The notes under the pieces: generated by a model
What the model was told of the DNA's origin: nothing
Databases searched by the model: none
What the model saw: only the letters and a program-made list of their open reading frames with translations
Part shown: piece after piece, positions 43,534 to 63,584 of the stretch
How positions within the stretch are numbered: position 1 is the first letter of the stretch
Layout: each line of letters opens with the position of its first letter
NCBI GenBank assembly: GCA_963739455.1
Contig: CAVUAK010000001.1
Span: 2,176,001-2,240,000, forward strand
Source: an uncultured Gemmatimonadales bacterium
Lineage (GTDB): Bacteria > Gemmatimonadota > Gemmatimonadetes > Gemmatimonadales > GWC2-71-9
Direction of reading: 5' to 3'
DNA length: 64,000 bases
Program-made: the position numbers and the translations under genes

Positions 43534-44366
43534 CGGCTGCTGCGGTGACGCTTGGCGCGCAGATGGCCACTGCGGTGGCGGCGATCCGCCGACGCAGCGC
43601 GTTCGTGCCCGAAGTCGGGATGATCCTCGGCACCGGTCTCGGTGCGCTGGGCAAGAGCATCGCCGTCGAGGCGGAGATTCCCTATGCCGACATTCCGGGG
43701 TTTCCCCTCAGCACCGTCGAGTCGCATGCCGGCAAGCTGCTGCTTGGCACGCTCGCAGGCCGGCGCGTCGCTGCGTTGCAGGGGCGCTTCCACCGCTACG
43801 AGGGCTACTCACTGCAGCAGGTGACGTTCCCGGTGCGGGTGCTTCGCGCGCTCGGGGCATCAACGCTCGTGGTGTCCGGCGCGGTGGGTGGCATGCACCC
43901 GCTCTGGAACCTTGGTGACCTCGCGCTCCTGTCCGACCATATCAACCTGATGGGTGACAGTCCGCTCATCGGCCCGAACGACGACACGCTTGGCCCGCGG
44001 TTCCCCGACATGTCAGCGCCCTATGATGCGGCACTGCGCGCAACGGCGCACAAGGCGGCGCTCGAGCTCGGCATTGCGCTCCGTGAGGGGGTGTACGTGG
44101 CGGTGACCGGCCCTGCGCTCGAGACCCGCGCCGAGTACCGGATGCTGCGCGCGATGGGCGCCGACGTGGTGGGCATGTCCACGGTGCCGGAAGTGATCGT
44201 CGCGGTGCACGGGGGCATGCGCGTACTGGGCATCACGGTGGTGACGGACAAGTGCCTGCCCGATGCGCTCGAGCCGGCCGATGTGGCGACGATCATCGCG
44301 ACTGCGGAATCAGCGGAGCCGCGGCTGGCGGCGTTGCTGACGCGAATCCTGGAGAAGATGGCGTGA
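43530..44366 (+). CDS. punA: Purine-nucleoside phosphorylase
   Basis: [38 protein letters not shown]. Confidence 0.93.
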
Positions 44367-47300: not shown

Positions 47301-47479
47301 GGGTCACGGGTGATGAACAGGTGCAGCGCGCGGTCACGGCCCACAACGGGTTCATCCGCGACGAGACCCTGGCGCGGGAGCTCGATGTCGGGACGCGCGG
47401 TTCGGCGCCCGACCTGGAGCAGCAGGTGGATCTCGACGGGGTCTCGGCGGTACTGGGCATCCAGCGGCACGGCGAATAA
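44363..47479 (+). CDS. ileS: Isoleucine-tRNA ligase, type 2
   Basis: [52 protein letters not shown]; no C-terminal Zn finger. Confidence 0.96.
45166..45193. repeat. Heptamer (CAGTCGK) array inside ileS
   Basis: cagtcgt cagtcgg cagtcgt cagtggg, encoding SRQSAVVSG in the CP1 region. Confidence 0.75.
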
Positions 47480-49880: not shown

Positions 49881-50243
49881 GTGGGGCACACCGTTCTCGT
49901 CTGTGACGACGCGATCTTCATGCGCACCATGATTGCCGATATCCTCGCGGCCGCGGGCTACGAGGTGATCGGCGAGGCGGAAACCGGCGCGCAGGCAGTC
50001 CAGAAATATCGTGAACTCAAGCCCGACCTCGTCACCATGGACATCGTGATGCCCGACATGGGCGGCATCGATGCAGTGCGCGAGATCTGCAAGGATGATC
50101 CCGACGCGAAGGTGCTGATGTGCAGCGCGATGGGACAGCAGGCGCTGGTGGTCGAGGCGATCCAGGCGGGGGCGAAGGACTTCGTGGTGAAGCCGTTCCA
50201 GCCGTCACGCGTGCTCGAGGCGGTGCAGCGCGTTCTGGGCTGA
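49881..50243 (+). CDS. cheY: CheY-type response regulator
   Basis: VCDDAIFMR, DLVTMDIVMP, MCSAMGQQ, KPF; resembles Bacillus/Thermotoga CheY. Confidence 0.93.
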   Translation: MGHTVLVCDDAIFMRTMIADILAAAGYEVIGEAETGAQAVQKYRELKPDLVTMDIVMPDMGGIDAVREICKDDPDAKVLMCSAMGQQALVVEAIQAGAKDFVVKPFQPSRVLEAVQRVLG

Positions 50244-50248
50244 GCCCC

Positions 50249-52180
50249 ATGGATCTCGCGAAGTACGCGGCGCTCTTCGTCTCGGAAAGTCGCGAGCACC
50301 TGCAGCAGTGCAACCAGTTGTTGCTGGCGTGGGAGCGTGACCCGGAAGCAACTGCGCCGGTAGACGGACTGTTCCGCGCGGTGCATTCGCTCAAGGGCAT
50401 GGCGGCCACGATGGGGTTTGCGCCGCTGGCCGAGCTGGCGCACCGGGCCGAGAACCTGCTCGATGCGGTGCGGAGCGGGCGAGTCGCGGTGAAGCCGGAG
50501 CACTTCGAGCTGCTCTTCCGCTCGGTGGACGAGCTGGAGGATGGGGTCGCAAGGGCCACGACGGGGAAGGGTCTCCGCGCGGAAGCCGCATCGCTGGTGA
50601 AGGCGCTGGATGCGGCGGTGAAGATCGGGGACAAGCCGGCGGAGCCGGCAAAGGCGGGGAGGGCGGGGAAGGCGGGAGAAACGGCGAAGGCGGGTGAGGC
50701 TGCAAAGGCGGGGAGGGCGGGGAAGGCGGGTGACGAAGCGACTGCAGGCGCGAAAGATGAGCGGCCGTCGCTGGACGTGAAGATCACCGTCCGCTCCGAC
50801 GCGCTGCTCCGCGGTGCACGAGCACTGCTCGCGCTCAGGAAGGTGGAAGCACTCGGTGTCGTGTCCCGGGTGACGCCCCAGGTGAGCGAGCTGGAGCGCG
50901 AGGACTTCGACGGCAAGCTGGCGCTCCGCATCCGCACCGGTGCCGCGCCGTCCGAAGTCGATGCGGTGATCCGCTCGGCGGGTGACATCGCCGGGGTGGC
51001 GATCGACCTCGCCTCGGACGAGGCGACGGTCGATGCGAACGCGATGCGGCAGATCCGCATCGACCTGTCTCGCCTCGATGTGCTGATGAAGCTGGCGGGT
51101 GAACTGGTGGTGGCGCGAAACCGGCTGGTGGAGCTGGCCCGCGCATCGACGGACCCCGAGCTGGGGCAGGTGGGCGAGCGGATCTCGCGGCTGGTGGGCG
51201 CAGTCCAGTCGGAAGTGCTCGAGGCTCGGCTGACACCGGTGCGAGAAGTGTTCGACCGATTCCCCCGCGTGGTGCGCGACCTGGCCCGCGACCTGGGCCG
51301 GCAGGTGCGGCTCGAGGTGGAGGGCGGCGACATCGAACTGGATCGCGCGGTGCTCGATGAAGTGGCTGATCCGCTGGTGCACCTGGTCCGGAACGCGATC
51401 GACCACGGCATCGAGCCGCCGCGGGAGCGGGTGAAGGCGGGCAAGGCGGCCGAGGGACGGCTCCGGTTGTCGGCGTCGCGGGAACGGAACAGCGTGGCGA
51501 TCCGGGTGGCCGATGACGGCCGTGGCATCGACCGCTCGAAGATCCTGGCGAAGGCGAAGGCCGATGGGCTGGTGGACGCCGCTGCCGAATCGCTGGCCGA
51601 TGACCAGTTGCTGCGGATTCTCTCGCGCTCGGGCTTCAGCACGGCGGCGGTGGTGAGTGGTGTGTCGGGCCGTGGTGTCGGCGTGGACGTGGTGATGACG
51701 CGCATCCGGCAGCTCGGCGGGGCAGTGGAGCTGGTCAGCGAGCCAGGGCAGGGCACGGCGTTCGTGCTGCGGGTGCCGCTGACGCTGGCGATCGTGCGGT
51801 CGCTGCTGGTGCAGGTGGGCGAGGAACGGTATGTCGTGCCGCTCAACTACGTGAGCGAGACGATCGAGTTCTCGGCGACACCAATCACGGCGCTGGGCGA
51901 TCGCGAGGCATTGGTCATCAGGGAACAGCCGGTGCCCACGGTGCACCTGCACCGGCTGCTCAACATTGCGGGGGCGAGCACGACAGGGCGGCGGCCGGTG
52001 CTGGTGGTGCAGGTAGGGGAACGCCGGAGCGCGCTGGTGGTGGATGCACTGATTGGGCAGCAGGAAATCGTGGTGGAGCCGTTCGATGCGCCTCGCGGGA
52101 TGCCCGGCTGGTTCAGCGGGGCAACGATCCTCGCGGATGGCGCGCCGGCGCTGATCCTGGACGCGGCGGCGCTCGTCTGA
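50249..52180 (+). CDS. cheA: Chemotaxis histidine kinase CheA (P1-P5)
   Basis: FRAVHSLKGMA (Hpt), P2-like domain, HLVRNAIDHGIE, DDGRGID, GRGVGVDVV, C-terminal CheW domain. Confidence 0.96.
   Translation: MDLAKYAALFVSESREHLQQCNQLLLAWERDPEATAPVDGLFRAVHSLKGMAATMGFAPLAELAHRAENLLDAVRSGRVAVKPEHFELLFRSVDELEDGVARATTGKGLRAEAASLVKALDAAVKIGDKPAEPAKAGRAGKAGETAKAGEAAKAGRAGKAGDEATAGAKDERPSLDVKITVRSDALLRGARALLALRKVEALGVVSRVTPQVSELEREDFDGKLALRIRTGAAPSEVDAVIRSAGDIAGVAIDLASDEATVDANAMRQIRIDLSRLDVLMKLAGELVVARNRLVELARASTDPELGQVGERISRLVGAVQSEVLEARLTPVREVFDRFPRVVRDLARDLGRQVRLEVEGGDIELDRAVLDEVADPLVHLVRNAIDHGIEPPRERVKAGKAAEGRLRLSASRERNSVAIRVADDGRGIDRSKILAKAKADGLVDAAAESLADDQLLRILSRSGFSTAAVVSGVSGRGVGVDVVMTRIRQLGGAVELVSEPGQGTAFVLRVPLTLAIVRSLLVQVGEERYVVPLNYVSETIEFSATPITALGDREALVIREQPVPTVHLHRLLNIAGASTTGRRPVLVVQVGERRSALVVDALIGQQEIVVEPFDAPRGMPGWFSGATILADGAPALILDAAALV
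50632..50735. repeat. GGCGGGGAR-based repeat in the CheA P1-P2 linker
   Basis: gcaaaggcggggagggcggggaaggcggg occurs at 50648-50676 and 50702-50730; encodes AKAGRAGKAG twice. Confidence 0.85.
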
Positions 52181-52205
52181 CTGGGTAAGGGTTCGGGAGA
52201 GCACC

Positions 52206-52826
52206 ATGGACGATGTGCGGACACTGAAGGCGCACCAGCTCGACGCGCTGCGCGAGGTCGCCAATATTGGCGCCGGCCACGCGGCGACCGCGCTTTCCCA
52301 GATGACCAACCGCACCATCATGATCGCGGTGCCCGAGGTCAACGTGCGCCCGCTCGAGGACGTGGCGGAGCTCTTCGGCTCCGCTGACGCCGTCATCTCC
52401 GCGGTGCTGATGCACATGATGGGCGACCTCACGGGCCGCACCATGATCCTCTTCCCCACCGAGTCAGCCCGGAACCTCTGCGACATCCTGATGCGGCGCG
52501 CGCCCGGCACGACGCAGGAATTCGGGCCGATGGAGCAGTCGGGGCTCAAGGAGGTCGGCAACATCCTGGTGAGTGCGTACCTCACGGCGCTCAGCGACTT
52601 CATGGGGATGATGCTCGTGCCGTCGGTGCCCAGCCTCGTGATCGACCAGGCGGGGGCGATCCTCACCACCACCTACCTCAATTTCGGCCACGACCGCGAC
52701 TACGTCTTCTGCGTCGAGACGGCATTCCAGGTCGCTGGCGCGTCCGAGCAGCTTCACGGGCATTTCCTGCTGCTGCCCGACCTGCCCTCGCTGCGCGCCA
52801 TCTTCGACGCCATCCGCATCTCCTGA
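52206..52826 (+). CDS. cheC: CheC phosphatase
   Basis: DALREVANIGAGHAATALS and SGLKEVGNIL (two ExxN sites). Confidence 0.95.
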   Translation: MDDVRTLKAHQLDALREVANIGAGHAATALSQMTNRTIMIAVPEVNVRPLEDVAELFGSADAVISAVLMHMMGDLTGRTMILFPTESARNLCDILMRRAPGTTQEFGPMEQSGLKEVGNILVSAYLTALSDFMGMMLVPSVPSLVIDQAGAILTTTYLNFGHDRDYVFCVETAFQVAGASEQLHGHFLLLPDLPSLRAIFDAIRIS

Positions 52827-52830
52827 CCCG

Positions 52831-55542
52831 ATGCCGGGTCCTGCGCCTTCCGATCGCGACCTAGCCATCCTCCGGTCGTTCGCCAGTCGCATCGACCCGT
52901 CCGACGCCGGCGCGCACAACAACCTGGGTGTCCTGTATTACCAGAAGGGGATGATCGGCGAGGCCGTCGCCGCGTTTTCGCGCGCGCTCGAGATCGACTC
53001 GCGCATGCAGGTGGCGCAGGACAACCTCGAACTGGCGTATCGAGAGAGCGGTTTCTACGATGGCCGCGTCGCCGAACTGCAGGAACGCCTGCGGCGCACT
53101 CCCGATGATCGCGAGGCGCGCTGGGAACTGGGTCGTGCATACGCCAGCCTGAGCCGGCACGACCTCGCGGCCCAGGCCTTCGAGGAACTGCTTGCCCGGG
53201 CTCCAGCCGATGTGCCCGCCCTCATTCACCTGGGACTGGCCGAGAAGGCACGCGGCCGCATCGAGGCTGCCGGCGGGTGCTTCGCCCTCGCCGCCGAGCT
53301 CGATCCAGGCAGCGCCGTCGCGCGATTCTACCAGGGCGAGACGCTGTACAATCGCGGGCTCAACGATGCGGCACTCGAGGCGCTCGAGGCCGCCATCGCG
53401 CACAATCCCGACTACGCTGAAGCGCACTACCTGCTGGCCTTTGTCTACGGCGACATGGGGCTGCACGAGCGCGCGCTCGCGGCCACGAAGCGGGCGATCG
53501 CGCTGAACCCGATGCTCTCGCGGGCGCAGGCGAATCTTTCGCTCGAGCGGCTGGTGCCCAAGGGAGAAGAGGGCGCGAAGGCGGGGAAGGCGGGGAGGGC
53601 GGGGGGTGCTGGCGTGGGGTCCGACGGCGTGCCGCTGGAGCGGGATCCGCTGGCGCACTACCAGCTCGGGCTCGCCTTCCGGCAGAAGCGCTACTTCGCC
53701 GAAGCGTTGCGCGAGTACCGGATGGCACTCGATGCAGGCGAGGATCGCTCGCTGGTACTGCAGGCAATGGCGGAAGTGCACCTGCTGCGGCGCGATCACT
53801 CGACGGCGCTGGAGCTGTACGACGAGCTGCTGCGGCAGAACCCGAAGGTGCCGAAGCTCTGGAACGAGCGCGGCGTTTGCCTGCACCAGGCGGGGCGCCG
53901 CGACGAGGCGGCGACGGCCTACGAGCACGCGATTGCCGCCGACCGTACCTACGCGCTGGCGTGGAACAATCTCGGCGTGCTGCGGGCCAGTGCCGCCGGG
54001 TCCGATACGGCAATGGCGGCCTTCCGTTCGGCGCTGGAACGGCAGCCCGGCCTGCATGCGGCGCGACTCAACCTGGCCCTGCTGCTCATGCAGAAGCGCC
54101 AGCCGCAGGCGGCACTCGAGGCCTACCGCGAGGTGCTGTCGCGCGACCACGTGAATGCGGTGGCGTGGAACGGGGTCGGCCTGGTGCTGATGGAACTCAA
54201 GCGCTACACCGATGCCCGCAACGCCTTCGGCCGCGCGGTGGAGCATGACCCCGCCCTCGCTGCAGCGCACTACAACCTGAGCTTCACGCTGGGACAGCTC
54301 GGCGACTTCGAGGGCGCGTTGCGCGAAACCAAGCGCGCGCTGGAGCTCGAGTCGTACTACGTGCCGCAGAAGTTCGCGCTGACGATCGACCTGCAGTACG
54401 AGGATCCCACGATCGCAATCGCGCCCGACGTTGCGACTGAGGTGGGACTCGAGTCGCTGGGTGGCGAGTTCGCCTTCGATCCGGGCACCCTCGACGACCT
54501 CTTCGCCGAACTGGCGCCGCCCGAGGCTCCGGTGGTGGCCGCCCGGGTCGAGGATCCCCTCACGCTGGCGCGCGATTACCTGAGCAAGGGGCTGCTCGAG
54601 CTGGCGACGGCCGAGGTGACGCGGGCGCAGGGGCGTGGCGCGGGCCGCGCCGAGGCGCAGACGCTGCTGGGCGAGATCTACGCGCGGCGAGGGCTGCACG
54701 GCGAGGCACTGGAGCGCTTCCGCACGGCGCGCGAATCGAATCCGGGCGACCGGCTCGCGGCACTGGGTGAGCTGCGCGGCCTCGTGGCGCTGGAGCGTGC
54801 CGCCGAGGGTGGCACCCTGGCCGAGCAGCTGCTGGAAGCATTCCCCCGGGATGTTGAGGTGCTGAGCGCCGTCGCGCGCGTGCGCCTGGCCATGGGTGAC
54901 GCAACGCGCGCGCTGAGTGCGGTACAGCTGGCGCAGACTCTCGCGCCCGGCCGCTCCGACCTCCTGCACCTGCAGGCGCGAGTCGCAGTGCGACTGGATG
55001 ACCGTGCCGCAGCGATCGAGGCGTGCCGTCGCGCGCTCGAACTCGACGACTCGCTGGTGCAGGTGTGGTACGAGCTCGGGCGTCTGGAGGAAGGACGCGA
55101 GGGATGGACGGCAGCGCAGGATGCCTATGCGCGCGCACTCGACATCCTTCCCACATATCTCGAGGCAGGGCTGGCGCTGGCGGACCTGCTGCGGCGCCGG
55201 ATGCAGCATCGTCCCGCGCTCGAGGTGCTGGTGGAACTGCTGACCACCGACCCGTACGCGGTGGAAGCGCTGGTGCTGCTGGGCAAGGTGCTGTTCGAGC
55301 AGGGGCGCATCGACGAGGCGCTGGAGGGCTTCGGGCGCGCGCTCCGGTTCAACCCTGAGCATCCGGCGGCACTCTTCCATTCCGGGGACGTGCTGGCGCG
55401 CAAGCGCCGCTTCGAGGATGCGGTTGATGCGTGGGACCGGGTCTCACAGATCGATCCCTCGGGGCCCTTCGCCGCGCCGGCCCGGAGCCGGGCGCGCTCG
55501 GCGCGGGATCTCCGGCACATCTTCGCCGCGCAGCCGGGCTGA
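52831..55542 (+). CDS. Large TPR-repeat protein (903 aa)
   Basis: Many TPR units (AHNNLGVLY, AWNNLG, AWNGVG, AHYNL) in blocks separated by a Gly-rich and an acidic linker; no signal peptide. Confidence 0.9.
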   Translation: MPGPAPSDRDLAILRSFASRIDPSDAGAHNNLGVLYYQKGMIGEAVAAFSRALEIDSRMQVAQDNLELAYRESGFYDGRVAELQERLRRTPDDREARWELGRAYASLSRHDLAAQAFEELLARAPADVPALIHLGLAEKARGRIEAAGGCFALAAELDPGSAVARFYQGETLYNRGLNDAALEALEAAIAHNPDYAEAHYLLAFVYGDMGLHERALAATKRAIALNPMLSRAQANLSLERLVPKGEEGAKAGKAGRAGGAGVGSDGVPLERDPLAHYQLGLAFRQKRYFAEALREYRMALDAGEDRSLVLQAMAEVHLLRRDHSTALELYDELLRQNPKVPKLWNERGVCLHQAGRRDEAATAYEHAIAADRTYALAWNNLGVLRASAAGSDTAMAAFRSALERQPGLHAARLNLALLLMQKRQPQAALEAYREVLSRDHVNAVAWNGVGLVLMELKRYTDARNAFGRAVEHDPALAAAHYNLSFTLGQLGDFEGALRETKRALELESYYVPQKFALTIDLQYEDPTIAIAPDVATEVGLESLGGEFAFDPGTLDDLFAELAPPEAPVVAARVEDPLTLARDYLSKGLLELATAEVTRAQGRGAGRAEAQTLLGEIYARRGLHGEALERFRTARESNPGDRLAALGELRGLVALERAAEGGTLAEQLLEAFPRDVEVLSAVARVRLAMGDATRALSAVQLAQTLAPGRSDLLHLQARVAVRLDDRAAAIEACRRALELDDSLVQVWYELGRLEEGREGWTAAQDAYARALDILPTYLEAGLALADLLRRRMQHRPALEVLVELLTTDPYAVEALVLLGKVLFEQGRIDEALEGFGRALRFNPEHPAALFHSGDVLARKRRFEDAVDAWDRVSQIDPSGPFAAPARSRARSARDLRHIFAAQPG

Positions 55543-55544
55543 TC

Positions 55545-56690
55545 ATGGCTATCGAGGGACCGCTCAAGGAACTGCACATCCATGATGTGTTCCAGCTGCT
55601 GGACCTGGGCCGGAAGACGGGCGTGCTGTGCGTGACCTCTGAGCTGCGGCAGAACTCGGGGATGGTCTACTTCGAGAAGGGGGCAGTGGTCGCTGCGGAG
55701 ATCCGGAGTAATCCGCATCCACTGGGCACGCTCCTGCTGCGCGCCGGCAAGATCGCCGAGGCCGACCTGGCGCGGGCGCGGGCACTGCAGGGCGCGGGTG
55801 ACGGGCGACGGCTGGGCGACATCCTGGTGGACCTCGGCGCGATGAACCGGCGCGACCTCGAGCGGCTGGTGCGCCAGCAGGTGCAGGAAGTCATCTTCGA
55901 GCTGATGAACTGGTCGGAGGGATACTTCTCCTTCGAGGAAACCACCGGGCCGCGGACGAATGCCGAGGCCAGTGTGCGGATCCCGACGGAATCGCTGCTC
56001 ATGGAAGCGGCGCGCCGGATCGACGAATGGTCACGCATCGAGGCCAAGGTGCCGCACCTGGGCGTGGTGCCGCGCTTCGCCGATGCCGACAGCCAGCACG
56101 GGATGCTCGACCTCACGCCCTTCGAGTGGGAAGTGATCGCGACGGTGGACGGAGCACGCGACCTGCGGGCCATCGCCGACAAGCTGGGGCGGGCGGAGTT
56201 CGAGATCGCCCGCACCATCTTCGGCCTCACGAGCACCGGCGTCGTCGTGCTGGATGATCCGACACTGGTTGCCACCGGACCGGAAACCCCGGACGTGACG
56301 CAACTGGTGGTACGAGCAGAGGAGCAGCTGGCTTCGGGTGATGTCGACTCGGCGCGGCTCATCGCTACTGAAGCGACGGCGCGCTTCCCCGATCAGGCCG
56401 GCGCGCATGCGGTGCTCGGGCGCGTGCTGCTGGCGGGCGAGCACTACGCCGAGGCGGAGGAGGCATTTTTCGAGGCGCTGCGGCTCGAACCCTCGTTCGC
56501 ATCGGCGCGGCGGCTTCTCGGGACGGCGCAGGCTGCAAGCGGAAGGTTCGACGAGGCAATCGCCTCGTGGCAGCGCTGGCGGCAGCTGCCGGAGCGTTCG
56601 CCCGAGGAAGTGCAGCTGCAGGACGGGGTCGATCGCCTGCAGGCCGCGGCGCGACTGCTGAGTGACGCGATCAAGGGGTGGTATGACTGA
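55545..56690 (+). CDS. DUF4388 + MshEN-like + wHTH-like + TPR protein
   Basis: MAIEGPLKE..DVFQLL..GRKTGVL; LLMEAARRIDEW; C-terminal TPRs. Confidence 0.85.
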   Translation: MAIEGPLKELHIHDVFQLLDLGRKTGVLCVTSELRQNSGMVYFEKGAVVAAEIRSNPHPLGTLLLRAGKIAEADLARARALQGAGDGRRLGDILVDLGAMNRRDLERLVRQQVQEVIFELMNWSEGYFSFEETTGPRTNAEASVRIPTESLLMEAARRIDEWSRIEAKVPHLGVVPRFADADSQHGMLDLTPFEWEVIATVDGARDLRAIADKLGRAEFEIARTIFGLTSTGVVVLDDPTLVATGPETPDVTQLVVRAEEQLASGDVDSARLIATEATARFPDQAGAHAVLGRVLLAGEHYAEAEEAFFEALRLEPSFASARRLLGTAQAASGRFDEAIASWQRWRQLPERSPEEVQLQDGVDRLQAAARLLSDAIKGWYD

Positions 56691-57498
56691 CCCGATTCGC
56701 GAGCTGACAGCGCAGCTGGCGTCGGACCCGCAGAGCCTCGTCTTCCTCGAGCTGGGTGAGGCGTTGCGAAACCGGGGGCAGCCGGCGGCGGCGTACAAGG
56801 TCGCGCGCATGGGCGTGAACCGGTACCCGGAACTGGCGGCGTCGCACGACCTGCTGGCGCGGGTGCTCGCTGACCAGGGGGACCGTCACGCAGCGGCCGA
56901 GGCTTGGCGGCGCGTGCTGGAGCTGACGCCGGGGCATATCGGTGCCAACAAGGGCCTCGCCTTCCTGGCGTTCCGGGCGGGTGATCCCGAGGGCGCACTG
57001 CCGTTCCTCGAGGCGGCACTCGGTGCGGCGCCGGGAGACGAGGGTCTCGCGGTCGCCGTCGAGCGGGTGCGCACGGCACTGGATGGTGCGGCGGCGCGTG
57101 CCACAGCTGCGGCGGCAGCGAGTGAGCCGAGTGCGCTGCGCGGCGCAGAGGGGTTCGAGCCATTCGAGGATGCTCGCGGCGTCGTGCTGCTGGACACGCA
57201 GGGGCTGCGTCTCGCGGGCACGGTCAACGCGCCCGACGGAAGCGACGTCAGCGATGCGGTCGCGGCGCACCTGCAGGGCGTCTCGCGGGAGGCCGCGCGC
57301 GCGGCGCGACTGCTCGACCTGGGCGCATGGGAGAGTGTCACCGCAGAGTCGGCGGAGGGCCACCTCCTCGTCCTTCCGCCAACGCAGTCCACGGTGCTGC
57401 TCCTGCTGCGGGACGCGCGGGTGCCGGTGGGTCGTCTCGGCCTCATCGCGGAGCAGGCGGCGCGCGCGGCGCGCAGCTGGCTGGAGCGACTGGCGTGA
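56683..57498 (+). CDS. TPR + Roadblock/LC7 domain protein
   Basis: N-terminal TPRs; C-terminal GVVLLDTQGLRLAG...LLLL....PVGRL roadblock pattern. Confidence 0.8.
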   Translation: MTDPIRELTAQLASDPQSLVFLELGEALRNRGQPAAAYKVARMGVNRYPELAASHDLLARVLADQGDRHAAAEAWRRVLELTPGHIGANKGLAFLAFRAGDPEGALPFLEAALGAAPGDEGLAVAVERVRTALDGAAARATAAAAASEPSALRGAEGFEPFEDARGVVLLDTQGLRLAGTVNAPDGSDVSDAVAAHLQGVSREAARAARLLDLGAWESVTAESAEGHLLVLPPTQSTVLLLLRDARVPVGRLGLIAEQAARAARSWLERLA

Positions 57499-57845
57499 AG
57501 AACCTGGGTGAGACGCTCGAGCGGGTGACCCGCGTGGCGGGCATCCGGGGCGCGATGCTGGTGGCGGAGGCGGACGGTCTCGTGGTGGCCGAAGCATTGG
57601 CCGAGGGCCTCGACGGCGGGGCGGTCGCGGCGCTCGCGGCGAGCCTGACGCTCCGGCTCCGCCGCACGGCGATCAGTGCCGGGCTTGCGGTGCCGCAGGT
57701 GGTTCAGCTGCGGGCGGAGCGGGGAACGGTCCTCAGCGTGCCGGTGGGCGACGACCTGCTGCTCGTGGCAGTGGCGGAGCGCGATGCGAACCTGGGGCTC
57801 GCGCGGCTCGAGCTCCGGCAGGCGGCGGCGCAGCTCGGATCATGA
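57495..57845 (+). CDS. Roadblock/LC7 protein (MglB/MglC-like)
   Basis: GIRGAMLV..DGLVVA, AALAA, LVAVA..ANLGLARL. Confidence 0.88.
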   Translation: MKNLGETLERVTRVAGIRGAMLVAEADGLVVAEALAEGLDGGAVAALAASLTLRLRRTAISAGLAVPQVVQLRAERGTVLSVPVGDDLLLVAVAERDANLGLARLELRQAAAQLGS

Positions 57846-58303
57846 GGGTCATCGAGCCGTGGGTGGCCGAGCCGCTGCAGGGGTTCCTCGACGAGTCGGG
57901 TGCGCGGCTCACGCTGCTCATGACGTCAGCGGGCCAGGTGATCGCGCAGGACGGCTTCACCCGCTCGGTGGACGTCATGGCGGCGGCGGCGCTCGGGGCC
58001 GCGATCATGGCATCGACGGACGCGATCGCTGACGTGATGAGCACCGCGGCCTTCGGCGTGGTGCTGCACCAGGGGCCGAAGCAGAGCCTGGTGCTCCGCG
58101 CGTTCTGGACACCGCGCGGTCGATGGATCGGGCTGGTGGTCTTCGGGTCGGAAACGTCGGTGGGGCTGGTGCAGCTCTTCTTCCAGGAGCTGGAGCTCGC
58201 GCTGGCGAAGGCGGCGCCAGCGGAGCCGCCGACGCGGGCCGTGCTGGCGGAAAATTTCGAGCACGAACTCAACGCGAGCTTGCGCTCGCTCTTCGGGCGG
58301 TAG
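57842..58303 (+). CDS. mglB: MglB-like Roadblock protein (putative GAP of MglA)
   Basis: Roadblock fold, HQG, LVVF...SVGLV, C-terminal helix ending LRSLFG; directly upstream of mglA. Confidence 0.82.
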   Translation: MRVIEPWVAEPLQGFLDESGARLTLLMTSAGQVIAQDGFTRSVDVMAAAALGAAIMASTDAIADVMSTAAFGVVLHQGPKQSLVLRAFWTPRGRWIGLVVFGSETSVGLVQLFFQELELALAKAAPAEPPTRAVLAENFEHELNASLRSLFGR

Positions 58304-58306
58304 CGG

Positions 58307-58909
58307 ATGTCGCTGGTCAACTTCACTGCGCGCGAGATCACCTGCAAGATCGTCTACTATGGACCGGGCCGGTCCGGGAAGACGACCAACTTGCAGTACA
58401 TCTTCGGCCGGGTGCCGGACACGCGGCGCGGGCGGATGGTGTCGCTGGCCACGCAGGGTGACCGGACGCTGTTCTTCGACTTCCTTCCCATCGACCTGGG
58501 GAGCATCTCGGGGTTCCAGACCAAGTTCCAGCTGTACACCGTGCCGGGGCAGAGCTACTACAACGCGACGCGGAAGCTGGTGCTGCAGGGGGCCGACGGC
58601 ATCGTCTTCGTGGCCGACAGCCAGGCGCGGCGCTTCGACGACAACCTGGAGAGCCTGCAGAACCTGCAGGAAAACCTGCTGAGCCAGGGCGTGGATGTGC
58701 GGACGATGCCGATCGCGTTCCAGTACAACAAGCAGGACCTGCCGGGCGAGCTGGTGCTGCAGCCGTCGGAGCTGGATGACTCGCTCAATTTCCGCGGGGT
58801 GCCGAGCTTCGGTGCCGACGCGCTGCATGGCAGCGGCGTGTTCGAGACGCTGAAGGGGATCTCCGAGCTCGTGCTGCGCAAGCTGGCTGCGGGAGGGATT
58901 GCCGAATGA
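58307..58909 (+). CDS. mglA: MglA-family small GTPase
   Basis: KIVYYGPGRSGKTTNL, DRTLFFDF (intrinsic Arg), LYTVPGQ (catalytic Gln), VFVADSQ, YNKQD. Confidence 0.95.
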   Translation: MSLVNFTAREITCKIVYYGPGRSGKTTNLQYIFGRVPDTRRGRMVSLATQGDRTLFFDFLPIDLGSISGFQTKFQLYTVPGQSYYNATRKLVLQGADGIVFVADSQARRFDDNLESLQNLQENLLSQGVDVRTMPIAFQYNKQDLPGELVLQPSELDDSLNFRGVPSFGADALHGSGVFETLKGISELVLRKLAAGGIAE

Positions 58910-61147
58910 GCATGCTGCAGGGCGCGCACCGATTCGATGCACTGGTGGTGGGCACGGCCAACCGCACCGCGGTGACGGCCGGCCGCGCCGTGGCGAGTGC
59001 GCCGGGGTCGGCCTACAACCCGTTGCTCATCTACGCGCGGCCCGGCATGGGCAAGACGCACCTGCTCGGCGCCATCGCGCATGAAGTGTTCGCGGTGAAC
59101 CCGGCGGCGCGCATCGAGTTCCTGACACTGGATGAGTTCGTCGAAGGCTTCCATGTCGCCCTGTCCACCGGCCAGAGTGACCGAGTTCCGCGCGCGGTTC
59201 GGCGATGCGGACCTGCTGCTGGTGGACGACATCCAGTTCCTGAGCCGGCAACGGGAAATGCAGTCGGAACTGCTGCGGGTGCTCGACGTGATGCTGGCGG
59301 GGCAGAAGCAGGTGGTGCTCACCAGCGACCGGGCGCCCTCCGAAATCGAGTCGCTCGACGACCGGCTGCTCACGCGGTTTGCCGGGGGCCTGGTGCTCGA
59401 CATCGCCCGACCGGACTACGAGACCCGGGTCGCGATCCTGCACCGCAAGGCGGAGGAGCGCGGCGCGAGCTTCCCCGACGAGGTGCTCGAGGCGGTTGCG
59501 TCGCTCGACATCGAGAGCGTGCGTGAGCTGGTGGGCGCCGTGAACCGGCTGGTGGCATTCCAGGCGGTCAGCGAGGTGCCGATCGATGCCGCACAGGCGC
59601 GGCTGCTCATCGGCGGCCTGCAGTCGGCGGTAGCGGACGACCTGGTGGTGGAACAGGCGGAGACGCTGGAGTTCGCCGGTGTCGGCCATGGCGAGATGGC
59701 GCATGCGGGTGGCGATTCGCGCCGCCTCGTGGCCGACGCGCTTCCCGGGGTGATGCTCGGCCAGTCGGACATGCTGGGCGGCGGTCCCCTGGATGAGCTG
59801 CCCTCGCACGACGAGCCCGACGACGCGCCGCACGATTTCGGGCTGGCGGGCGAGCCGCACGAGTATGCCGACGCGCACGAGTTCTCGGAACCGGGCCCGG
59901 CGAAGCAGCAGCCGGACGAGCTGGGTGAGGGACTGGCCGAGAAGCAGGCCCTGCAGGCCGACCGCGACGAGTTCGGTGATTTCCTGTCCGACCTCGCGGC
60001 CACGCTGGCGCGGCAGGTTGATCCGTGGCGCGCGCGCGTGGGCGAGGCGATCCTGCGCTGGGAGGGCGAGGGCTTCCGCACCTACCGGCTGGAGCGGCTG
60101 CTGGAAGATCCAGAGCCACCCGATCCCGAGTCGGTGATGATCCAGTACGAAGCCGACGCGGAGCAGCTGCTCGAGCTGCGCGCCGAGGCGGAGTCGCTGG
60201 CGCCTGGCATGGCCGGCGCAGCGCAGCTCACCGATCCCGGCAACATGGCGGCGGCCGATGCCTACATGCAGCGGGTGCGCGAGGGCGCGGTGCCGCCGGC
60301 GGGGCCGGTGGAGCACTGGCTGCTCGACGACCTGATCGAGGGCCCGGGGAACCGCATGGCGGTGCGCGCGGCGCTCGCGGCGATTGCCGAGCCGGGGCAG
60401 AAGTACAACCCGATCGTGGTGGTGGGCGGTTCGGGCGTGGGCAAGACACACCTGCTGCACGGCATCGGGAACGCACTGGCGCTGGCGAGCGACGGACACG
60501 TGGCCTGCCTTGGCGCGCACGACTTCACGCAGGAGCTGATCGAGGCGATCGAGCGCGATGCCGTGGCGGCGTGGCGAAATCGCTACCGTCGCTGCTCGGC
60601 GCTGCTGCTCGACGATGTGCACCTCATCGCAGGCAAGGAGCGGACGCAGGAAGAACTGTTCCTGCTGTTCAACCTCTTCCTCGAGTCGAACCGGCAGCTC
60701 GGGTTCACCTCGGCGGTGCCGCTGGCGGAGCTGTCGGGCGTGGAGCCGCGACTGCTGACGCGCCTCGAGGGCGGGCTGGTGGTCGAGTTGCCGCCGCCCG
60801 ACCGCGAGCTCCGCCAGGAACTGGTGGAGCGGACGCTCACGAGCCGCGGCCAGGATGCGGATGCCGAGCTGGTGACGTACATCGCGTCGCGTCCCGCCGA
60901 GTCGGCGCGCGCCGTCCAGGGCTACGTGCAGCGCGTGCTGCACTCGGCCGACTCGCAGCAGGCGAAGCCGAGCGCGGCGCTGGCGCGGGAGGTGCTCGAG
61001 GGCGGCGCGCGCGTGGTGCGGAAGGGCAGCACGCCGGGCCGGTCGATCAGCGTGTCGCCCGCCTCGTCGGGTGGGGTCAAGAGCCACGAGAAGACCGTCT
61101 GGACCTGGCCCACCCTCGCCGATCGCGTGATCGAGGAGTGGAAGTAG
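58906..61147 (+). CDS. Tandem DnaA-like AAA+ protein lacking DNA-binding domain IV (+1 frameshift near 59181)
   Basis: Two copies of YNP..(G)xGKTHLL / LL.DD / RLLTR..GGL, separated by an acidic linker. Confidence 0.88.
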
Positions 61148-61148
61148 C

Positions 61149-62769
61149 ATGGCGATCAAGGGGTCCCTCAAGGAAGCGAGCCTTCCCGACGTCATCCAGC
61201 TGCTCTACCTGGGGCGGCGCACCGGGTGCCTGGCGATCACCGACCGCCAGAACCTGGGCTACATCTACTTCGATGACGGGAAGATCGCGTACGCGTCGAT
61301 CGTGAACCGCCGCGACCGGCTGGGCGACATGCTGGTGCGCAGCAACCGCATCAACGCGGAGCAGCTGCGCCAGGCGATCGACCAGCAGGCGAACGACCGC
61401 GAGGTGCGCCTGGGCGAGATCCTGCTGGGGCAGGGCGCGCTCACGCGGCAGGAACTGGACGACTACATGCGCCTCCAGATCGAGGAGGCGGTCTACTACC
61501 TGTTCACGTGGACCACGGGCGCCTTCAACTTCGAGGCGGGCGTCCGTCCCGATCCGCGCGACTTCCAGGTGCAGATCAACCCCGACTGGCTCCTGCTCGA
61601 GGGCGCGCGACGGGTGGACGAGTGGAGCCTGATCGAGAAGAAGATCCCGAGCTTCGACCTGATCTTCACTGCCGACCAGGCGCGGGTCGAGGCGGCGGGC
61701 GCCCCGCTGTCGGAGCAGGAGCAACTGGTCCTCCCGCTGCTCGATGGCCGGCGCGACGTGCAGCAGGTGGTGGACGAGTCGGGCCTGGTGGAGTTCGTGG
61801 TGGGCCAGGCGCTCTACAGCCTGATCACGGCGGGTTACGCGCATCGCACCGGGTCATCGGCGACCACCATCTCGCCCCGGGTCAACGATTCGCGGGTGGA
61901 GGAGCACCGGAACCTCGGCGTCGCGTTCTACCGCACGGGCATGCTGGACGAGGCGCTGCGCGAGTTCCGGCGGGTCGCGGAACTGCGGCCGACCGAGGGC
62001 AGCGCGCCGTTCTACCTCGGGCTCATCGCGCTGCGGCAGGCCAAGTGGGAAGAGGGCGTCGAGGCGTTCAAGCTGGCGGTGGAGAAGGGCGGCCCGCGCC
62101 CGGCGGCACTGCACAACCTCGGATTCGCACTGGAGCAGCTGGGGCGGCTCGAGGAAGCAGAGGCGGCGTATGGCGACGCCACCAGCCGCGCGCGCGATGA
62201 CCACCGGATCATGCTCGGCTGGGCCATCGCGGCGCTGCAGCGGGGCGAGCACCAGGTGGCGGTGAGCCGACTGGAACGCACGCGCGAGCTGCTGGGCGAG
62301 AAGACGCCGCCGGCGGCGTGGCACTGGGCGATGGCACTGGCCCAGGCGGCGAGCGACGGCCTCGACGCGGCGCTGGAGACGGCGCGCGCGGGCGTCACGG
62401 CATACCCGGAGCAGGCGGTGCTGCGGAACAACCTGGCCGTCCTGCTGGAGCTGCGGGGCGACACCGCCGGCGCGGAGCAGATGCTGAAGCTGGCGTTCTC
62501 GTCCGACCCGGCGCTGCCGCAGGTGTCGAAGAACACCGGCGACCTGCTGTATCGAGCCGGGCGTTATGACGAGGCCTACGAGGCGTACGAACGCGCGTCG
62601 CGCGTCGCGCCCGGAGCTGGGCGACGACCTCTACTTCAAGCTGGGCAACATCGCGTACAAGCGGCGGGACACGGCGCGGGCACGCGCGAGCTGGGAGCAT
62701 GCGACGGAACTGAACCCGGGCCACCAGCTGGCCCGGGCCAACCTCGACATGCTCGCGGCGGAGGCATGA
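61149..62769 (+). CDS. DUF4388 + MshEN-like + TPR protein (+1 frameshift near 62610)
   Basis: MAIKGSLKE..DVIQLL..GRRTGCL; LLLEGARRVDEW; TPRs continue in ORF 62566-62769. Confidence 0.85.
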
Positions 62770-63584
62770 CGGTGCACGAGGATGCGGAGTTCGATGCCCT
62801 GGCCAAGGACCTCACGGTGCGCACGGGAGTGTCGCTGGCGGCGTACAAGCCGAAGTGCCTCCGGCGCCGGATCGCCGTGCGCATGCGGGCCTGCGGCGTG
62901 CACACGTACGACGAGTACCGCGGCGTGCTCGCGAGTACGCCGGGCGAGGTCGATCGCCTGCACGACGCCCTCACGATCAACGTCACCCGCTTCTTCCGGA
63001 ACCCGGAAACCTGGGAGGCCGTAAAGGCGAACGTGCTGCCGGGGCTGATGGCGAAAGCGGCGCCGGTGCGGGTCTGGAGTGCCGGCTGCTCGTCGGGTGA
63101 GGAGGCGCATACGCTGGCGATGCTGTGGGCCGACGGCGCCGAGCGCGCGGGCCATCCCGAGTGGCTCGACCGGCTCAGCGTCGAGGCCACGGACATCGAC
63201 CGCGAGTGCATGCTGCGGGCGCGGGCGGGGCAGTATCGCACCGACGCCTTCGTGGAGACGCCGCCCCGGCTGGTGGAGCGATGGACCCGGCCGGAGGGAG
63301 AAGGGCGCATCGTCGACGCGCGGCTCCGCGCGCGGATCCAGGTGTCCACGCTCGACCTGACCCGCGATGCGATGCCGGTGCGCCGCTTCGACCTGGTCGT
63401 CTGTCGCAATGTCGTGATCTACTTCGACCGGATTACGCAGGAACGACTGTTCGTCGCCTTCCATGATGCGCTCGTGCCGGGCGGCACCCTGATCCTCGGC
63501 AAGGTGGAAACCCTGGTCGGCCCGGCGCGCGACCTGCTCGAGCTCGTGGATGTGCGCGAGCGCATTTACCGGAGGCCGGCGTGA
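62766..63584 (+). CDS. cheR: Chemotaxis methyltransferase CheR
   Basis: LTINVTRFFRN, VWSAGCSSGEE, ATDID, CRNVVIYFD; own ATG preceded by GGAGG. Confidence 0.94.
   Translation: MTVHEDAEFDALAKDLTVRTGVSLAAYKPKCLRRRIAVRMRACGVHTYDEYRGVLASTPGEVDRLHDALTINVTRFFRNPETWEAVKANVLPGLMAKAAPVRVWSAGCSSGEEAHTLAMLWADGAERAGHPEWLDRLSVEATDIDRECMLRARAGQYRTDAFVETPPRLVERWTRPEGEGRIVDARLRARIQVSTLDLTRDAMPVRRFDLVVCRNVVIYFDRITQERLFVAFHDALVPGGTLILGKVETLVGPARDLLELVDVRERIYRRPA

Follow-up and report, generated by a model that had tools for sequence, protein, structure and literature searches.

An uncultured Gemmatimonadales bacterium carries, in a chemosensory gene cluster between mglA and a PATAN-TPR gene, a gene for a protein in which two DnaA-type AAA+ modules share one chain. 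We analysed this gene within a stretch of 64,000 nucleotides of the genome (the window). On balance, we lean towards reading the protein as an ATP-dependent switch or scaffold that works outside replication and is tied to the PATAN-TPR adaptor. It belongs to a DnaA-clade family spread across the Gemmatimonadota, and the break in its frame in the window is almost certainly an artefact. The family is present in 199 of 301 Gemmatimonadota genomes, a tally that takes in the unpublished genomes G206, G086, G124 and G181. Nearly all known AAA+ modules of the DnaA clade serve in starting replication or in controlling that step (DnaA, Hda and related helicase loaders). Literature searches returned no description of the double DnaA-like ATPase family, though supplementary table S2 of PMC4316618, on mglA neighbourhoods, may list the gene without comment. 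The repeat nature of the helical region, the one-headed forms and the predicted contact between the tail and the TPR protein are new here.

Table 1 Features of the double DnaA-like ATPase gene and its surroundings, in window positions
Feature	Position	Strand	Basis or remark
cheA, cheC/X, 903-aa TPR protein, PATAN-TPR, TPR-Roadblock (upstream part of the cluster)	50120..57498	+	Pfam
Two Roadblock/LC7 genes	57495-57845 and 57842-58303	+	Pfam Robl_LC7
mglA, small Ras-like GTPase, 200 aa	58307..58909	+	ORF; Arf/Gtr1/Roc matches
Double DnaA-like ATPase gene, 5' piece	58906..59181	+	Residues 1-92, frame 1; aligned to the intact G008 and G009 genes
Head 1, a full DnaA domain III comprising AAA+ base and lid	58906..59614	+	Pfam, PDB, Foldseek
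CC dinucleotide with one extra C, +1 shift	59181..59182	+	Read as an assembly error
Double DnaA-like ATPase gene, 3' piece	59183..61147	+	Residues 93-746 and stop, frame 2
Acidic linker, predicted disordered	59615..59953	+	AF2 pLDDT <50 at P0001 residues 238-352
Helical middle domain, conserved	59954..60301	+	Profile A3 match in G000
Head 2, second DnaA domain III	60302..61006	+	Pfam; PDB 1l8q_A 6.8e-32
Conserved C-terminal tail (HEKTVWTWPTLADRVIEEWK)	61085..61144	+	3' of a disordered spacer; predicted TPR ligand
PATAN(DUF4388)-TPR gene	61149..62769	+	One extra G near 62613 breaks the frame; C-terminus in ORF 62566..62769
cheR	62766..63584	+	G008 CheR maps to G000 2238766-2239581

Two DnaA domain III heads in one chain

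Open reading frames and Pfam together resolve window 58906-61147 into one protein of ~746 aa with two Bac_DnaA (PF00308) AAA+ modules. The ORF at 58906..59526 (frame 1) translates as MSMLQGAHRFDALVVGTAN...YNPLLIYARPGMGKTHLL, and the ORF at 59132..61147 (frame 2) contains motifs of copy 1 (LLLVDDIQ...TSDR...RLLTRFAGG...VRELVGA) and of copy 2 (GPGN...YNPIVVVGGSGVGKTHLL...LLLDDVH...RLLTRLEGG) and ends in WTWPTLADRVIEEWK. All motifs that the initial annotation had quoted for the two AAA+ copies are found in these translations. In Pfam, Bac_DnaA matches the 5' piece (91 aa) at 5.7e-23 over profile positions 2-84 and covers two stretches of the 3' piece at 3.6e-61. Two stretches are likewise matched (2e-90) in P0001, an intact orthologue that is 90% identical to the window's 3' piece. 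Neither Bac_DnaA_C (domain IV, PF08299) nor DnaA_N (domain I, PF11638) gives a Pfam match in P0001 even at E≤1, in agreement with the expectation of two Bac_DnaA hits and no Bac_DnaA_C, and the N-terminus of the ATPase is directly the start of domain III. An AF2 model and Foldseek back the two-AAA+ fold. Foldseek matches of the full model to p97 and Rix7 were set aside, having an rmsd >19 Å and reflecting merely the presence of two AAA+ modules.

Head 1, whose Walker A motif is GMGKT (59044-59058), is ~40% identical to domain III of Bacillus subtilis DnaA and matches PDB 8btg_A (2.6e-53) and, by Foldseek, 8bv3_A (TMt 0.94). Head 2 carries the Walker A motif GSGVGKT (60428-60448). Between the heads lie the acidic linker, the length of which varies greatly among orthologues, and the helical middle domain; both had been noticed from the sequence, and to this we add that the helical stretch forms a conserved domain in its own right, one copy of a repeat family. 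The C-terminal tail, with the consensus EK-x-V-W-x-W-P ... I-E-E, is kept in 26/26 alignment rows, one-headed forms among them. Once the extra C is skipped, the window copy carries head 1, the helical domain, head 2 and the tail; in the one-headed natural variants, the middle domain and the tail are kept along with head 1.

The catalytic residues were counted in 14 family sequences, column by column for each head. The Walker A Lys and the first Walker B Asp are present in 14/14 sequences in both heads. At the box VII Arg and the finger position, head 1 scores 13/14 and 11/14, and head 2 14/14 and 14/14; the sensor II Arg is found in 14/14 (head 1) and 12/14 (head 2), and the sensor I Asp in 13/14 and 5/14, being Ala in head 2 of the window lineage. 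In the window copy itself, head 1 has the Walker A Lys, the Walker B acidic pair, sensor I, the arginine finger and sensor II, and head 2 has all AAA+ catalytic features except sensor I. Judged by these residues, head 1 should be a fully equipped active AAA+ ATPase, and head 2 one that differs only at sensor I.

Head 2 might, in addition, bind ssDNA or RNA in the manner of DnaA domain III, for instance in DNA uptake via type IV pili, although we give this nucleic-acid role hardly any credence. It would account for the residues found in head 2 at the two positions that align with the ssDNA-contacting H and B motifs of Escherichia coli DnaA, which are hydrophobic in 13/14 and Arg in 13/14 sequences; in head 1 they are replaced by His/polar residues and by Glu in 14/14. 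However, the Gemmatimonadales' own DnaA has Arg at that column in 0/13 cases, which makes it a weak marker, and Pfam detects no DNA-binding domain in P0001. Moreover, head 2 is absent in G080 and G133 and degenerate in family f7, where Walker A and B are missing, yet the gene pair persists in these lineages.

The frame break as an assembly error

At the break, the window reads GACCGAG, where G008 has GACGAG and G009 has GACCGG. Skipping base 59182 restores the frame (...STGQSDEFRARF...), which bears out the initial call of one extra C near 59181 in a gene for about 745 aa, and a tblastn search with the G008 protein locates no other break in the whole ATPase gene. The initial annotation had also allowed for decay. 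If the frameshift were real, the ATPase and PATAN-TPR genes would be pseudogenes in this strain and the module would be decaying. Each of the two partner genes is indeed interrupted here by a lone +1 insertion, and the public sequencing runs offer no reads of the source sample, none of them containing the window stretch (best word share 0.17). We nevertheless conclude that the assembly has almost certainly introduced the break and that the gene is intact in nature, because the same assembly splits the frames of murF, mraY, ftsW and rsmH (MraW) within 40 kb. In these surrounding 40 kb, 6/28 genes are frame-split by like single-base breaks, among them murF (three breaks), mraY and ftsW, which are essential for the cell wall and division, and isolated single-base indels in this part of the genome are mostly +1 insertions; where the window aligns to G008, over 19.8 kb, there are two such insertions.

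The comparison with relatives points the same way. Apart from one break each, the ATPase and PATAN-TPR frames are open, at 88% DNA identity to G008, and orthologues are intact in all other genomes examined except G003, with a single ORF at 26 loci. The extra base is also missing in 6/6 metagenome contigs of relatives spanning the site, which come from four sequencing runs at 85-97% identity and show the intact frame as the norm rather than this strain's own reads. A genuinely decaying module thus appears very improbable. The assembly comprises 4 contigs with a marker completeness of 83.7%. The second frameshift, near 62613, is the sole reason for an apparent fusion of cheR with the PATAN-TPR gene.

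An invariant neighbour downstream and a frequent one upstream

The ATPase gene lies in a Che-type cluster whose products include four TPR proteins. The second of the two Roadblock genes is MglB-like, with a weak NCBIfam MglB match of 31.8 bits that stays under the cut-off. The genome has five matches over the cut-off to PilB/PilT-type ATPases and, at 83.7% completeness, no match to FlhA.

The stop codon of mglA and the start codon of the ATPase gene share the sequence ATGA (58906-58909), as the proposed translational coupling implies, and an mglA orthologue is found immediately upstream in 36/41 genomes of the order and adjoining in 3/5 class-level genomes. The expected linkage of homologues to mgl and che genes is therefore real, and the conserved context fits the role in signalling, instead of replication, that had been suggested at the outset. 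Such adjacency could also mean that MglA is the primary partner, the ATPase serving MglA-GTP as an effector, a GAP/GEF-like regulator or a polar receptor, while its contact with PATAN-TPR would be secondary or wrong. This reading, which is compatible with our main explanation, we think rather unlikely. Dependence on MglA is not obligatory, because in genomes G246 and G270 of family f7 the ATPase and PATAN-TPR genes stay together although mglA is missing alongside, and in genus g20 an mglA-like gene occurs but the ATPase does not. The downstream PATAN-TPR gene is the invariant neighbour, more so than mglA: it immediately follows the ATPase gene at 25/25 loci, including two lineages without an adjoining mglA.

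PATAN genes have been noted near mglA before, group 1 mglA genes sometimes being close to them (PMC4316618). In the part of that source covered here, no such ATPase is described; its mention of AAA refers to AAA_21 of ABC transporters, and its mentions of ATPases refer to PilB/PilT and to a histidine-kinase domain.

Predicted docking of the tail in the TPR groove

A complex was predicted for the ATPase and PATAN-TPR orthologues of G080, which belong to another family and stand in for the broken genes of the window, the TPR partner being one of the cluster's four. Three runs gave ipSAE values of 0.84, 0.78 and 0.73 (median 0.78), and the best of 3 controls reached 0.00. In an approximate benchmark, for which our own alignments were used, the same mark is reached by 116/157 solved complexes and by 2/215 mismatched pairs. 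The runs have at least 47% of contacts in common, with a partner pLDDT of at least 68. In the predicted interface, ATPase residues 372-398, that is, the tail, form the whole ATPase side and face TPR residues 263-495, where conservation is 90% or higher at ten of the contact positions (L294, N325, L365, L398, E435, Q459, K462, L491, G492 and D494). The model suggests that the tail of the ATPase probably docks in the groove formed by the TPR repeats of its downstream partner. Solved structures include many complexes of TPR domains with peptides, so part of the ipSAE may reflect general likeness.

The middle domain is a single copy of an unnamed repeat

The helical middle domain (AF2 pLDDT 87.3) corresponds to one copy of an unnamed repeat of ~95 aa, described here by profile A3. 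This profile matches 447 library proteins, and 20 of the best 150 contain 4-23 tandem copies; some of the tandem-repeat proteins also bear one DnaA-type AAA+ module. Pfam has no match to the middle domain in P0001, an ESM Atlas search with the domain gave no usable match, and Foldseek on the PDB returned nothing at E≤0.001. A fold assignment was tried and discarded, the best VIA-align scores (Z 6.4 for 6gv5_A, with an rmsd of 3.8 over 95 aligned residues, and Z 6.1 for 2dgj_B) lying below the tool's meaningful level for helical bundles.

Two further observations concern the repeat-bearing relatives. Those that combine DUF835 with the repeat carry a Thermoplasmata label. A contig search with P0276, based on low-complexity patterns, yielded a single Levyibacteriota locus, with 42% identity to AAA+ residues 936-1232 only.

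Relation to the replication initiator

A canonical dnaA with domain IV adjoins dnaN at G000:C1:880561-882293, ~1.35 Mb from the ATPase gene, so the dnaA-dnaN locus that had been expected elsewhere in the genome is in place; it contains the only genomic match to PF08299 (G000:C1:881310-881516). The DnaA model TIGR00362 nonetheless scores the ATPase at 455.5 bits against a cut-off of 343.9, summed over two partial stretches. Public annotations label family members 'chromosomal replication initiator protein DnaA', and these labels mislead because the two partial matches add up past that cut-off. The Hda models all remain under theirs (TIGR03420, 162.1 vs 194.8 bits; NF005982, 55.1 vs 268; NF006571, 52.4 vs 297). 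With two domains III and neither domain I nor domain IV, the architecture fits neither DnaA nor Hda, as first claimed.

The proposed phylogeny of each half against DnaA and Hda places head 1 and head 2 in separate clades of their own, on long stems of 0.65 and 0.64, apart from the DnaA of the same genomes, and the heads evolve faster than DnaA. The tree is rooted on E. coli Hda, which sits on a branch of 3.8 outside all groups. Its three-way split into head 1, head 2 and DnaA is compatible both with an internal duplication and with two separate captures.

The kinship with DnaA raises the question of whether, in line with the second option of the initial annotation, the ATPase is an Hda-like or DnaA-capping modulator, whose heads would hetero-oligomerise with DnaA-ATP through the arginine finger and so couple the polarity or chemosensory state to replication initiation. 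The ~40% identity of head 1 to a DnaA domain III, the box VII and sensor II arginines kept in both heads and the TIGR00362 score are what such a protein might display. Against it stand the best Hda score, which falls short, the long-stemmed and faster evolving clades of the heads, and the replacement of the two ssDNA positions throughout head 1. The gene is, moreover, remote from dnaA-dnaN in this genome and keeps a constant place between mglA and the PATAN-TPR gene in the che cluster, and for the conserved tail of its product the model predicts a TPR protein as the partner. We consider a modulator of DnaA improbable on these grounds.

Discussion

Based on these data, we propose that the ATPase is a nucleotide-controlled scaffold or switch. 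Its gene would be co-transcribed with mglA upstream and the PATAN-TPR gene downstream, all tightly packed within the Che-type cluster. The tail would dock, as predicted, in the concave groove of the TPR domain encoded next door, while the AAA+ heads, to judge from their conserved residues, would bind and hydrolyse ATP and associate head to tail via their arginine fingers, as in DnaA. Given tail docking and ATP-dependent association of the heads, the ATPase would assemble or release PATAN-TPR adaptors, and the PATAN domain, by its gene context and published work on PATAN, may act on polar type IV pili or another motility apparatus, with MglA and Che in control. The data show the architecture, its conservation, the gene linkage and the artefactual nature of the break; the tail-TPR contact is a prediction, and ATP-dependent oligomerisation, the link to the pilus and any role of MglA are inferred.

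A bolder version, which we put forward only tentatively and think less likely to hold than to fail, is that the ATP-driven head-to-tail polymerisation of DnaA has been taken out of replication and reused as a cytoplasmic assembly switch. On binding ATP, the protein would polymerise or close and, via the tail-TPR contact, gather PATAN adaptors at the motor of the type IV pilus on one pole, place and time being set by MglA-GTP and Che. The helical module also recurs with a DnaA AAA+ lacking domain IV in unrelated metagenomic proteins, possibly archaeal, with 6-8 repeats and zinc ribbons in 4/5, which would hint that DnaA-clade machines outside replication form a broader class that has gone unrecognised. 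If the proposed role is correct, the nucleotide switch of the initiator can be redeployed for spatial signalling. The labelling of the family as DnaA can in any case mislead origin prediction and gene counts in Gemmatimonadota.

Comparison with known systems

Both heads share the fold and motifs of DnaA domain III (PF00308; PDB 8bv3, 8btg, 2z4r and 1l8q). In contrast to DnaA, the Gemmatimonadota ATPase has two such domains in one chain, lacks domains I and IV, adds a helical repeat domain and a tail predicted to dock on a TPR protein, and is encoded away from the dnaA-dnaN locus. Hda carries an N-terminal clamp-binding motif, and none was seen by eye in the ATPase. The ATPase resembles Hda/HdaA in being a DnaA-clade AAA+ protein without a DNA-binding domain that keeps its arginine finger, but Hda has one module (~230 aa), the ATPase two (~746 aa), and the gene contexts are also unlike.

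Five metagenomic proteins (P0136, P0191, P0200, P0221 and P0266) share the ~95-aa module (A3, E down to 1e-40) and have a DnaA-type AAA+ without domain IV. They differ in placing 6-8 repeats N-terminal of a single AAA+, which groups in the tree with canonical DnaA and with neither head. Four of the five have C-terminal zinc ribbons, none being detected in P0136, and on reading P0266 no WxWP tail was seen, unlike in the Gemmatimonadota ATPase.

The predicted contact resembles the way in which some TPR domains grip the short C-terminal peptides of their partners: here, too, a short conserved tail on a flexible spacer would enter a concave groove. However, the ATPase tail is longer (~27 residues in contact), Trp-rich and unrelated in sequence to the ligands of that class.

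In Myxococcus xanthus, the Frz chemosensory pathway acts on the MglA/MglB polarity module. The Gemmatimonadota cluster likewise combines a Che-type pathway with MglA, Roadblock/MglB, and TPR and PATAN adaptors, but it unites che and mgl genes in one string and places a DnaA-type ATPase between mglA and the PATAN-TPR gene. As for PATAN itself, the Synechocystis domain is an output domain that binds the pilus motor proteins PilB1 and PilC (bioRxiv 10.1101/2021.06.11.447907). The downstream partner of the ATPase resembles the cyanobacterial PatA-type regulators in starting with PATAN/DUF4388, whereas its PATAN domain is fused to TPR instead of a receiver domain and is paired with an AAA+ protein.

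Architecture of the ATPase gene

The ATPase gene is split between two overlapping ORFs downstream of mglA, which encodes a Ras-like GTPase. The Pfam profile Bac_DnaA matches the 5′ piece (5.7e-23, profile positions 2–84) and, twice, the 3′ piece (3.6e-61), bearing out the two DnaA-type AAA+ domains (heads 1 and 2) described in the initial annotation; the second module is complete within the second ORF. A profile scan of the whole genome (G000) returned Bac_DnaA in three pieces at this locus and in one more gene. The plus-strand frame has a GC3 of 0.90 and carries all homology. The minus-strand ORF of 722 aa on the opposite strand (window 59027–61195) is a high-GC shadow frame and no gene.

Features of the ATPase locus, of its intact orthologue P0001 and of related loci. 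PATAN-TPR, the DUF4388+TPR adaptor gene directly downstream of the ATPase gene.
Feature	Location	Strand	Remarks
mglA	window 58307..58909	+	stop overlaps ATPase start as ATGA
ATPase gene, first ORF	window 58906..59526	+	starts at ATG of ATGA; holds first Walker A
ATPase gene, second ORF	window 59132..61147	+	frame +1; rest of head 1, long linker, second AAA+, C-terminus
Intact orthologue P0001	G008 L007:1225-3471		single gene
Intact orthologue	G009 L008:1225-3465		single gene
Head 1	P0001 1-237		ordered; TMt 0.94 to B. subtilis DnaA domain III, 8bv3_A (Foldseek)
Acidic linker	P0001 238-352		disordered; length variable
Helical middle domain	P0001 ~355-465		ordered
Head 2	P0001 ~468-703		ordered
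Spacer	P0001 704-728		disordered
Tail	P0001 last ~20		kept in every aligned row; consensus REK-x-V-W-x-W-P-x4-R-x-I-E-E
One-headed variant	L056:8699-9901 (G080)		still between mglA and PATAN-TPR
One-headed variant	L055:9131-10783 (G133)		still between mglA and PATAN-TPR
rsmH/mraW, Mur ligase, MraY-type transferase, ftsW	G000:C1:2246113-2255848		frame-split vs G008; just past the window's right end

The interrupted reading frame

Uninterrupted orthologues of 746–748 aa exist in the close relatives G008 and G009. DNA alignment to these relatives reveals one surplus base in the window gene (GACCGAG versus GACGAG in G008), and the G008 protein aligns to G000 by tblastn in exactly two pieces, residues 1–94 and 90–748, confirming the single extra C that had been placed near 59181. 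Over 19.8 kb aligned with the G008 contig, the window contains just two isolated, uncompensated single-base insertions: this one and another at 62613 (CCCGGAG versus CCCGAG in G008), which pushes PATAN-TPR (61149–62769) into the frame of cheR (62766–63584). The 811-aa DUF4388+TPR+CheR ORF is an artefact of the latter insertion; relatives encode PATAN-TPR (~539 aa) and CheR (~272 aa) in two distinct genes.

Across the 40 kb compared, G000 shows frame splits in 6 of the 28 genes that were called from the G008 contig, the other four encoding a Mur ligase (three breaks), an MraY-type transferase, FtsW and MraW/RsmH. Since no bacterium could have lost all these genes, the assembly must have systematic single-base errors; those that break frames occur about once per few kb and are mostly +1 insertions. 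The assembly comprises 4 contigs, yet its marker completeness is only 83.7%. Six metagenome contigs cross the break site, and all six are without one base relative to the window; they come from relatives, in four runs of four studies, this strain itself being in no run. We are highly confident that the break in the ATPase gene is an assembly artefact, and any frameshift reported from this genome is to be distrusted. The G003 orthologue (L010, G003:C8:275429-277395; 10-contig assembly) is likewise in two frames, divided elsewhere (query residues 2–44 and 41–655), probably through the same kind of error.

Relation to DnaA and Hda

The ATPase is not the replication initiator. P0001 has, as anticipated in the initial annotation, no match to Bac_DnaA_C, nor does it match DnaA_N, even at E≤1, and a canonical dnaA–dnaN locus is present elsewhere in the genome (C1:880561-882293), where dnaN (C1:880561-880914) adjoins the only G000 gene that combines Bac_DnaA with Bac_DnaA_C (C1:881310-882293). 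The orthologue passes the cut-off of the NCBI DnaA model (455.5 versus 343.9 bits) solely because two partial matches add up, and it does not reach the cut-offs of the Hda models. Relatives are labelled 'DnaA' or 'DnaA/Hda family protein [Gemmatimonadales]' in public sources. A role of the ATPase in replication coupling is possible, but nothing specific speaks in its favour.

When each half was compared with DnaA and Hda in a tree (48 sequences, 236 columns, LG+C20), both fell apart from DnaA. Head 1 and head 2 each form a clade (support 100/99 for both) on a long stem, the pair measuring 0.65 and 0.64. The resident DnaA of the genomes clusters weakly (80/71) with E. coli DnaA and the AAA+ modules of the repeat proteins described below, with E. 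coli Hda as the outgroup on a very long branch; the tree does not settle the branching order among head 1, head 2 and DnaA. These separate, long-stemmed clades indicate that, by comparison with the order, both heads are old, that they evolve more rapidly than DnaA and that neither is a recent copy of the resident dnaA.

Anatomy and residues of the family

The family alignment comprised 26 orthologues, drawn from three families within the order, and the structure of P0001 was predicted with 54 sequences (mean pLDDT 77.5, pTM 0.67).

Functional columns in 14 copies of each head aligned with E. coli DnaA, whose residue numbers and roles we take as a guide; V211 and R245 are presumed ssDNA contacts.
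Column	Head 1	Head 2
Walker A Lys	14/14	14/14
First Walker B Asp	14/14	14/14
Box VII Arg	13/14	14/14
Arginine finger	11/14	14/14
Sensor II Arg	14/14	12/14
Sensor I Asp	13/14	5/14
V211	His or polar	hydrophobic 13/14
R245	Glu 14/14	Arg 13/14

Natural one-headed forms, found in G080 (401 aa) and G133, consist of head 1, middle domain and tail without head 2, and head 2 of family f7 no longer carries either the GKT Walker A or the acidic Walker B (L058:8793-10793, L059:8492-10528). What stays constant across all these forms is head 1, middle domain and tail, together with the neighbouring PATAN-TPR gene.

The middle domain is a single copy of a ~95-aa helical repeat, predicted to fold as a helical bundle (pLDDT 87.3), for which structure searches gave no convincing solved relative. 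Its profile, searched against 1.84 billion representatives (E≤0.001), matched 447 proteins, and 20 of the best 150 matches carry 4 to 23 tandem copies; arrays of 6–23 copies occur in P0123, P0129, P0136, P0155, P0191, P0200, P0221 and P0266. The repeat core reads W-x3-G-[YF]-x-[TV]-x2-L. A Pfam scan of 24 proteins, these 20 included, assigned no family to the repeat itself. Five of the 20 (P0136, P0191, P0200, P0221, P0266) have one Bac_DnaA module, an AAA+ of DnaA type without domain IV, and four of these five end in C-terminal zinc ribbons, none being detected in P0136. Also seen among the 20 are an N-terminal DUF835 (two proteins) and a weak KaiC-like match (one); P0155 is one of the two DUF835 proteins, and its cluster members are labelled Thermoplasmata archaeon.

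Gene context and distribution

The cluster in the window runs cheA (50120–52180), cheC/X, a 903-aa TPR protein, PATAN-TPR, TPR-Roadblock, Roadblock, MglB-like Roadblock, mglA, ATPase, PATAN-TPR, cheR and cheD; in relatives it is extended by cheY on the upstream side and by cheB and cheW on the downstream side. No MCP is encoded by the che cluster (window 50120–57498), four MCP genes are found at other places in the genome, and the 903-aa all-TPR protein occupies the position where a receptor might be expected.

The proposed linkage to mgl and che genes holds across the order, with mglA directly upstream on the same strand in 36 of 41 genomes. Among the exceptions, G011 and G015 are cut by contig ends, G004 (77% complete) is without both genes, and the congeneric G031 and G035 possess an mglA-like gene without the ATPase. 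A second MglA paralogue (G000:C1:2010580-2011041; 58% identity over 156 aa), away from the cluster, recurs in almost every genome of the order.

According to the middle-domain profile, 199 of the 301 genomes analysed from the phylum hold one ATPase copy (f1 121/125, f2 54/69, f3 3/3, f4 4/6, f5 1/1, f7 11/47, f8 4/4), and families f6 and f9–f12 gave no match (0/45). This tally takes in four unpublished genomes (G206, G086, G124, G181), each matching, on which no other claim depends. A PATAN-TPR orthologue lies downstream of the ATPase in all 24 further loci scanned (25/25 in total). At class level, in five genomes of other families, it follows directly in 5/5, and mglA precedes in 3/5. In f7 the ATPase/PATAN-TPR pair comes after DivIVA and ileS, without mglA, che or mgl genes. 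In the window, ileS (44252–47479) precedes the che cluster by a few genes (dksA, pseudouridine synthase), an arrangement that looks as though the che–mgl block had been inserted at, or lost from, a site shared with f7.

Predicted tail–TPR contact and proposed mechanism

The G080 orthologues, which fit the size limit whole, were modelled as a pair: PATAN-TPR (542 aa, 25-row alignment) and ATPase (401 aa, 26-row). The values of three controls were all 0.00, and the ipSAE values of the pair were 0.84, 0.78 and 0.73 (median 0.78), a mark reached by 116/157 solved complexes and 2/215 mismatched pairs; these counts are only a rough guide for runs on alignments of our own. The runs agree on at least 47% of contacts, with partner pLDDT of at least 68. 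All confident contacts on the ATPase side fall in residues 372–398, the tail; those on the TPR side span residues 263–495, and at ten of the TPR contact residues conservation across 25 orthologues is 90% or higher. The models support, as a prediction, binding of the tail in the TPR groove, but TPR–peptide complexes are well represented among solved structures, and part of the score may come from likeness to these.

No description of the two-headed ATPase was found in the literature searched, nor in the passages of PMC4316618 consulted. New here are the artefact status of the break, the residue comparison and tree for each head, the one-headed variants, the repeat nature of the middle domain with its recurrence alongside DnaA-type modules elsewhere, and the tail–TPR prediction.

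In the mechanism that we propose, the predicted contact would anchor the ATPase by its tail in the TPR groove of the PATAN-TPR protein, the adaptor. Judging from the residues, ATP binding and hydrolysis by head 1 would alter self-association or conformation, as in DnaA, and head 2 may be a second, often hydrolysis-impaired site or an arginine-finger donor. In this way the ATPase would control the adaptor's assembly state or availability. Going by the context of the ATPase gene, polarity and timing may be set by MglA and the Che proteins encoded around it. FlhA has no match in G000 (83.7% marker completeness), and PilB/PilT-type ATPases have 5 matches over the cut-off. A study in Synechocystis reports binding of PATAN domains to PilB1 and PilC, proteins of the pilus motor (10.1101/2021.06.11.447907).
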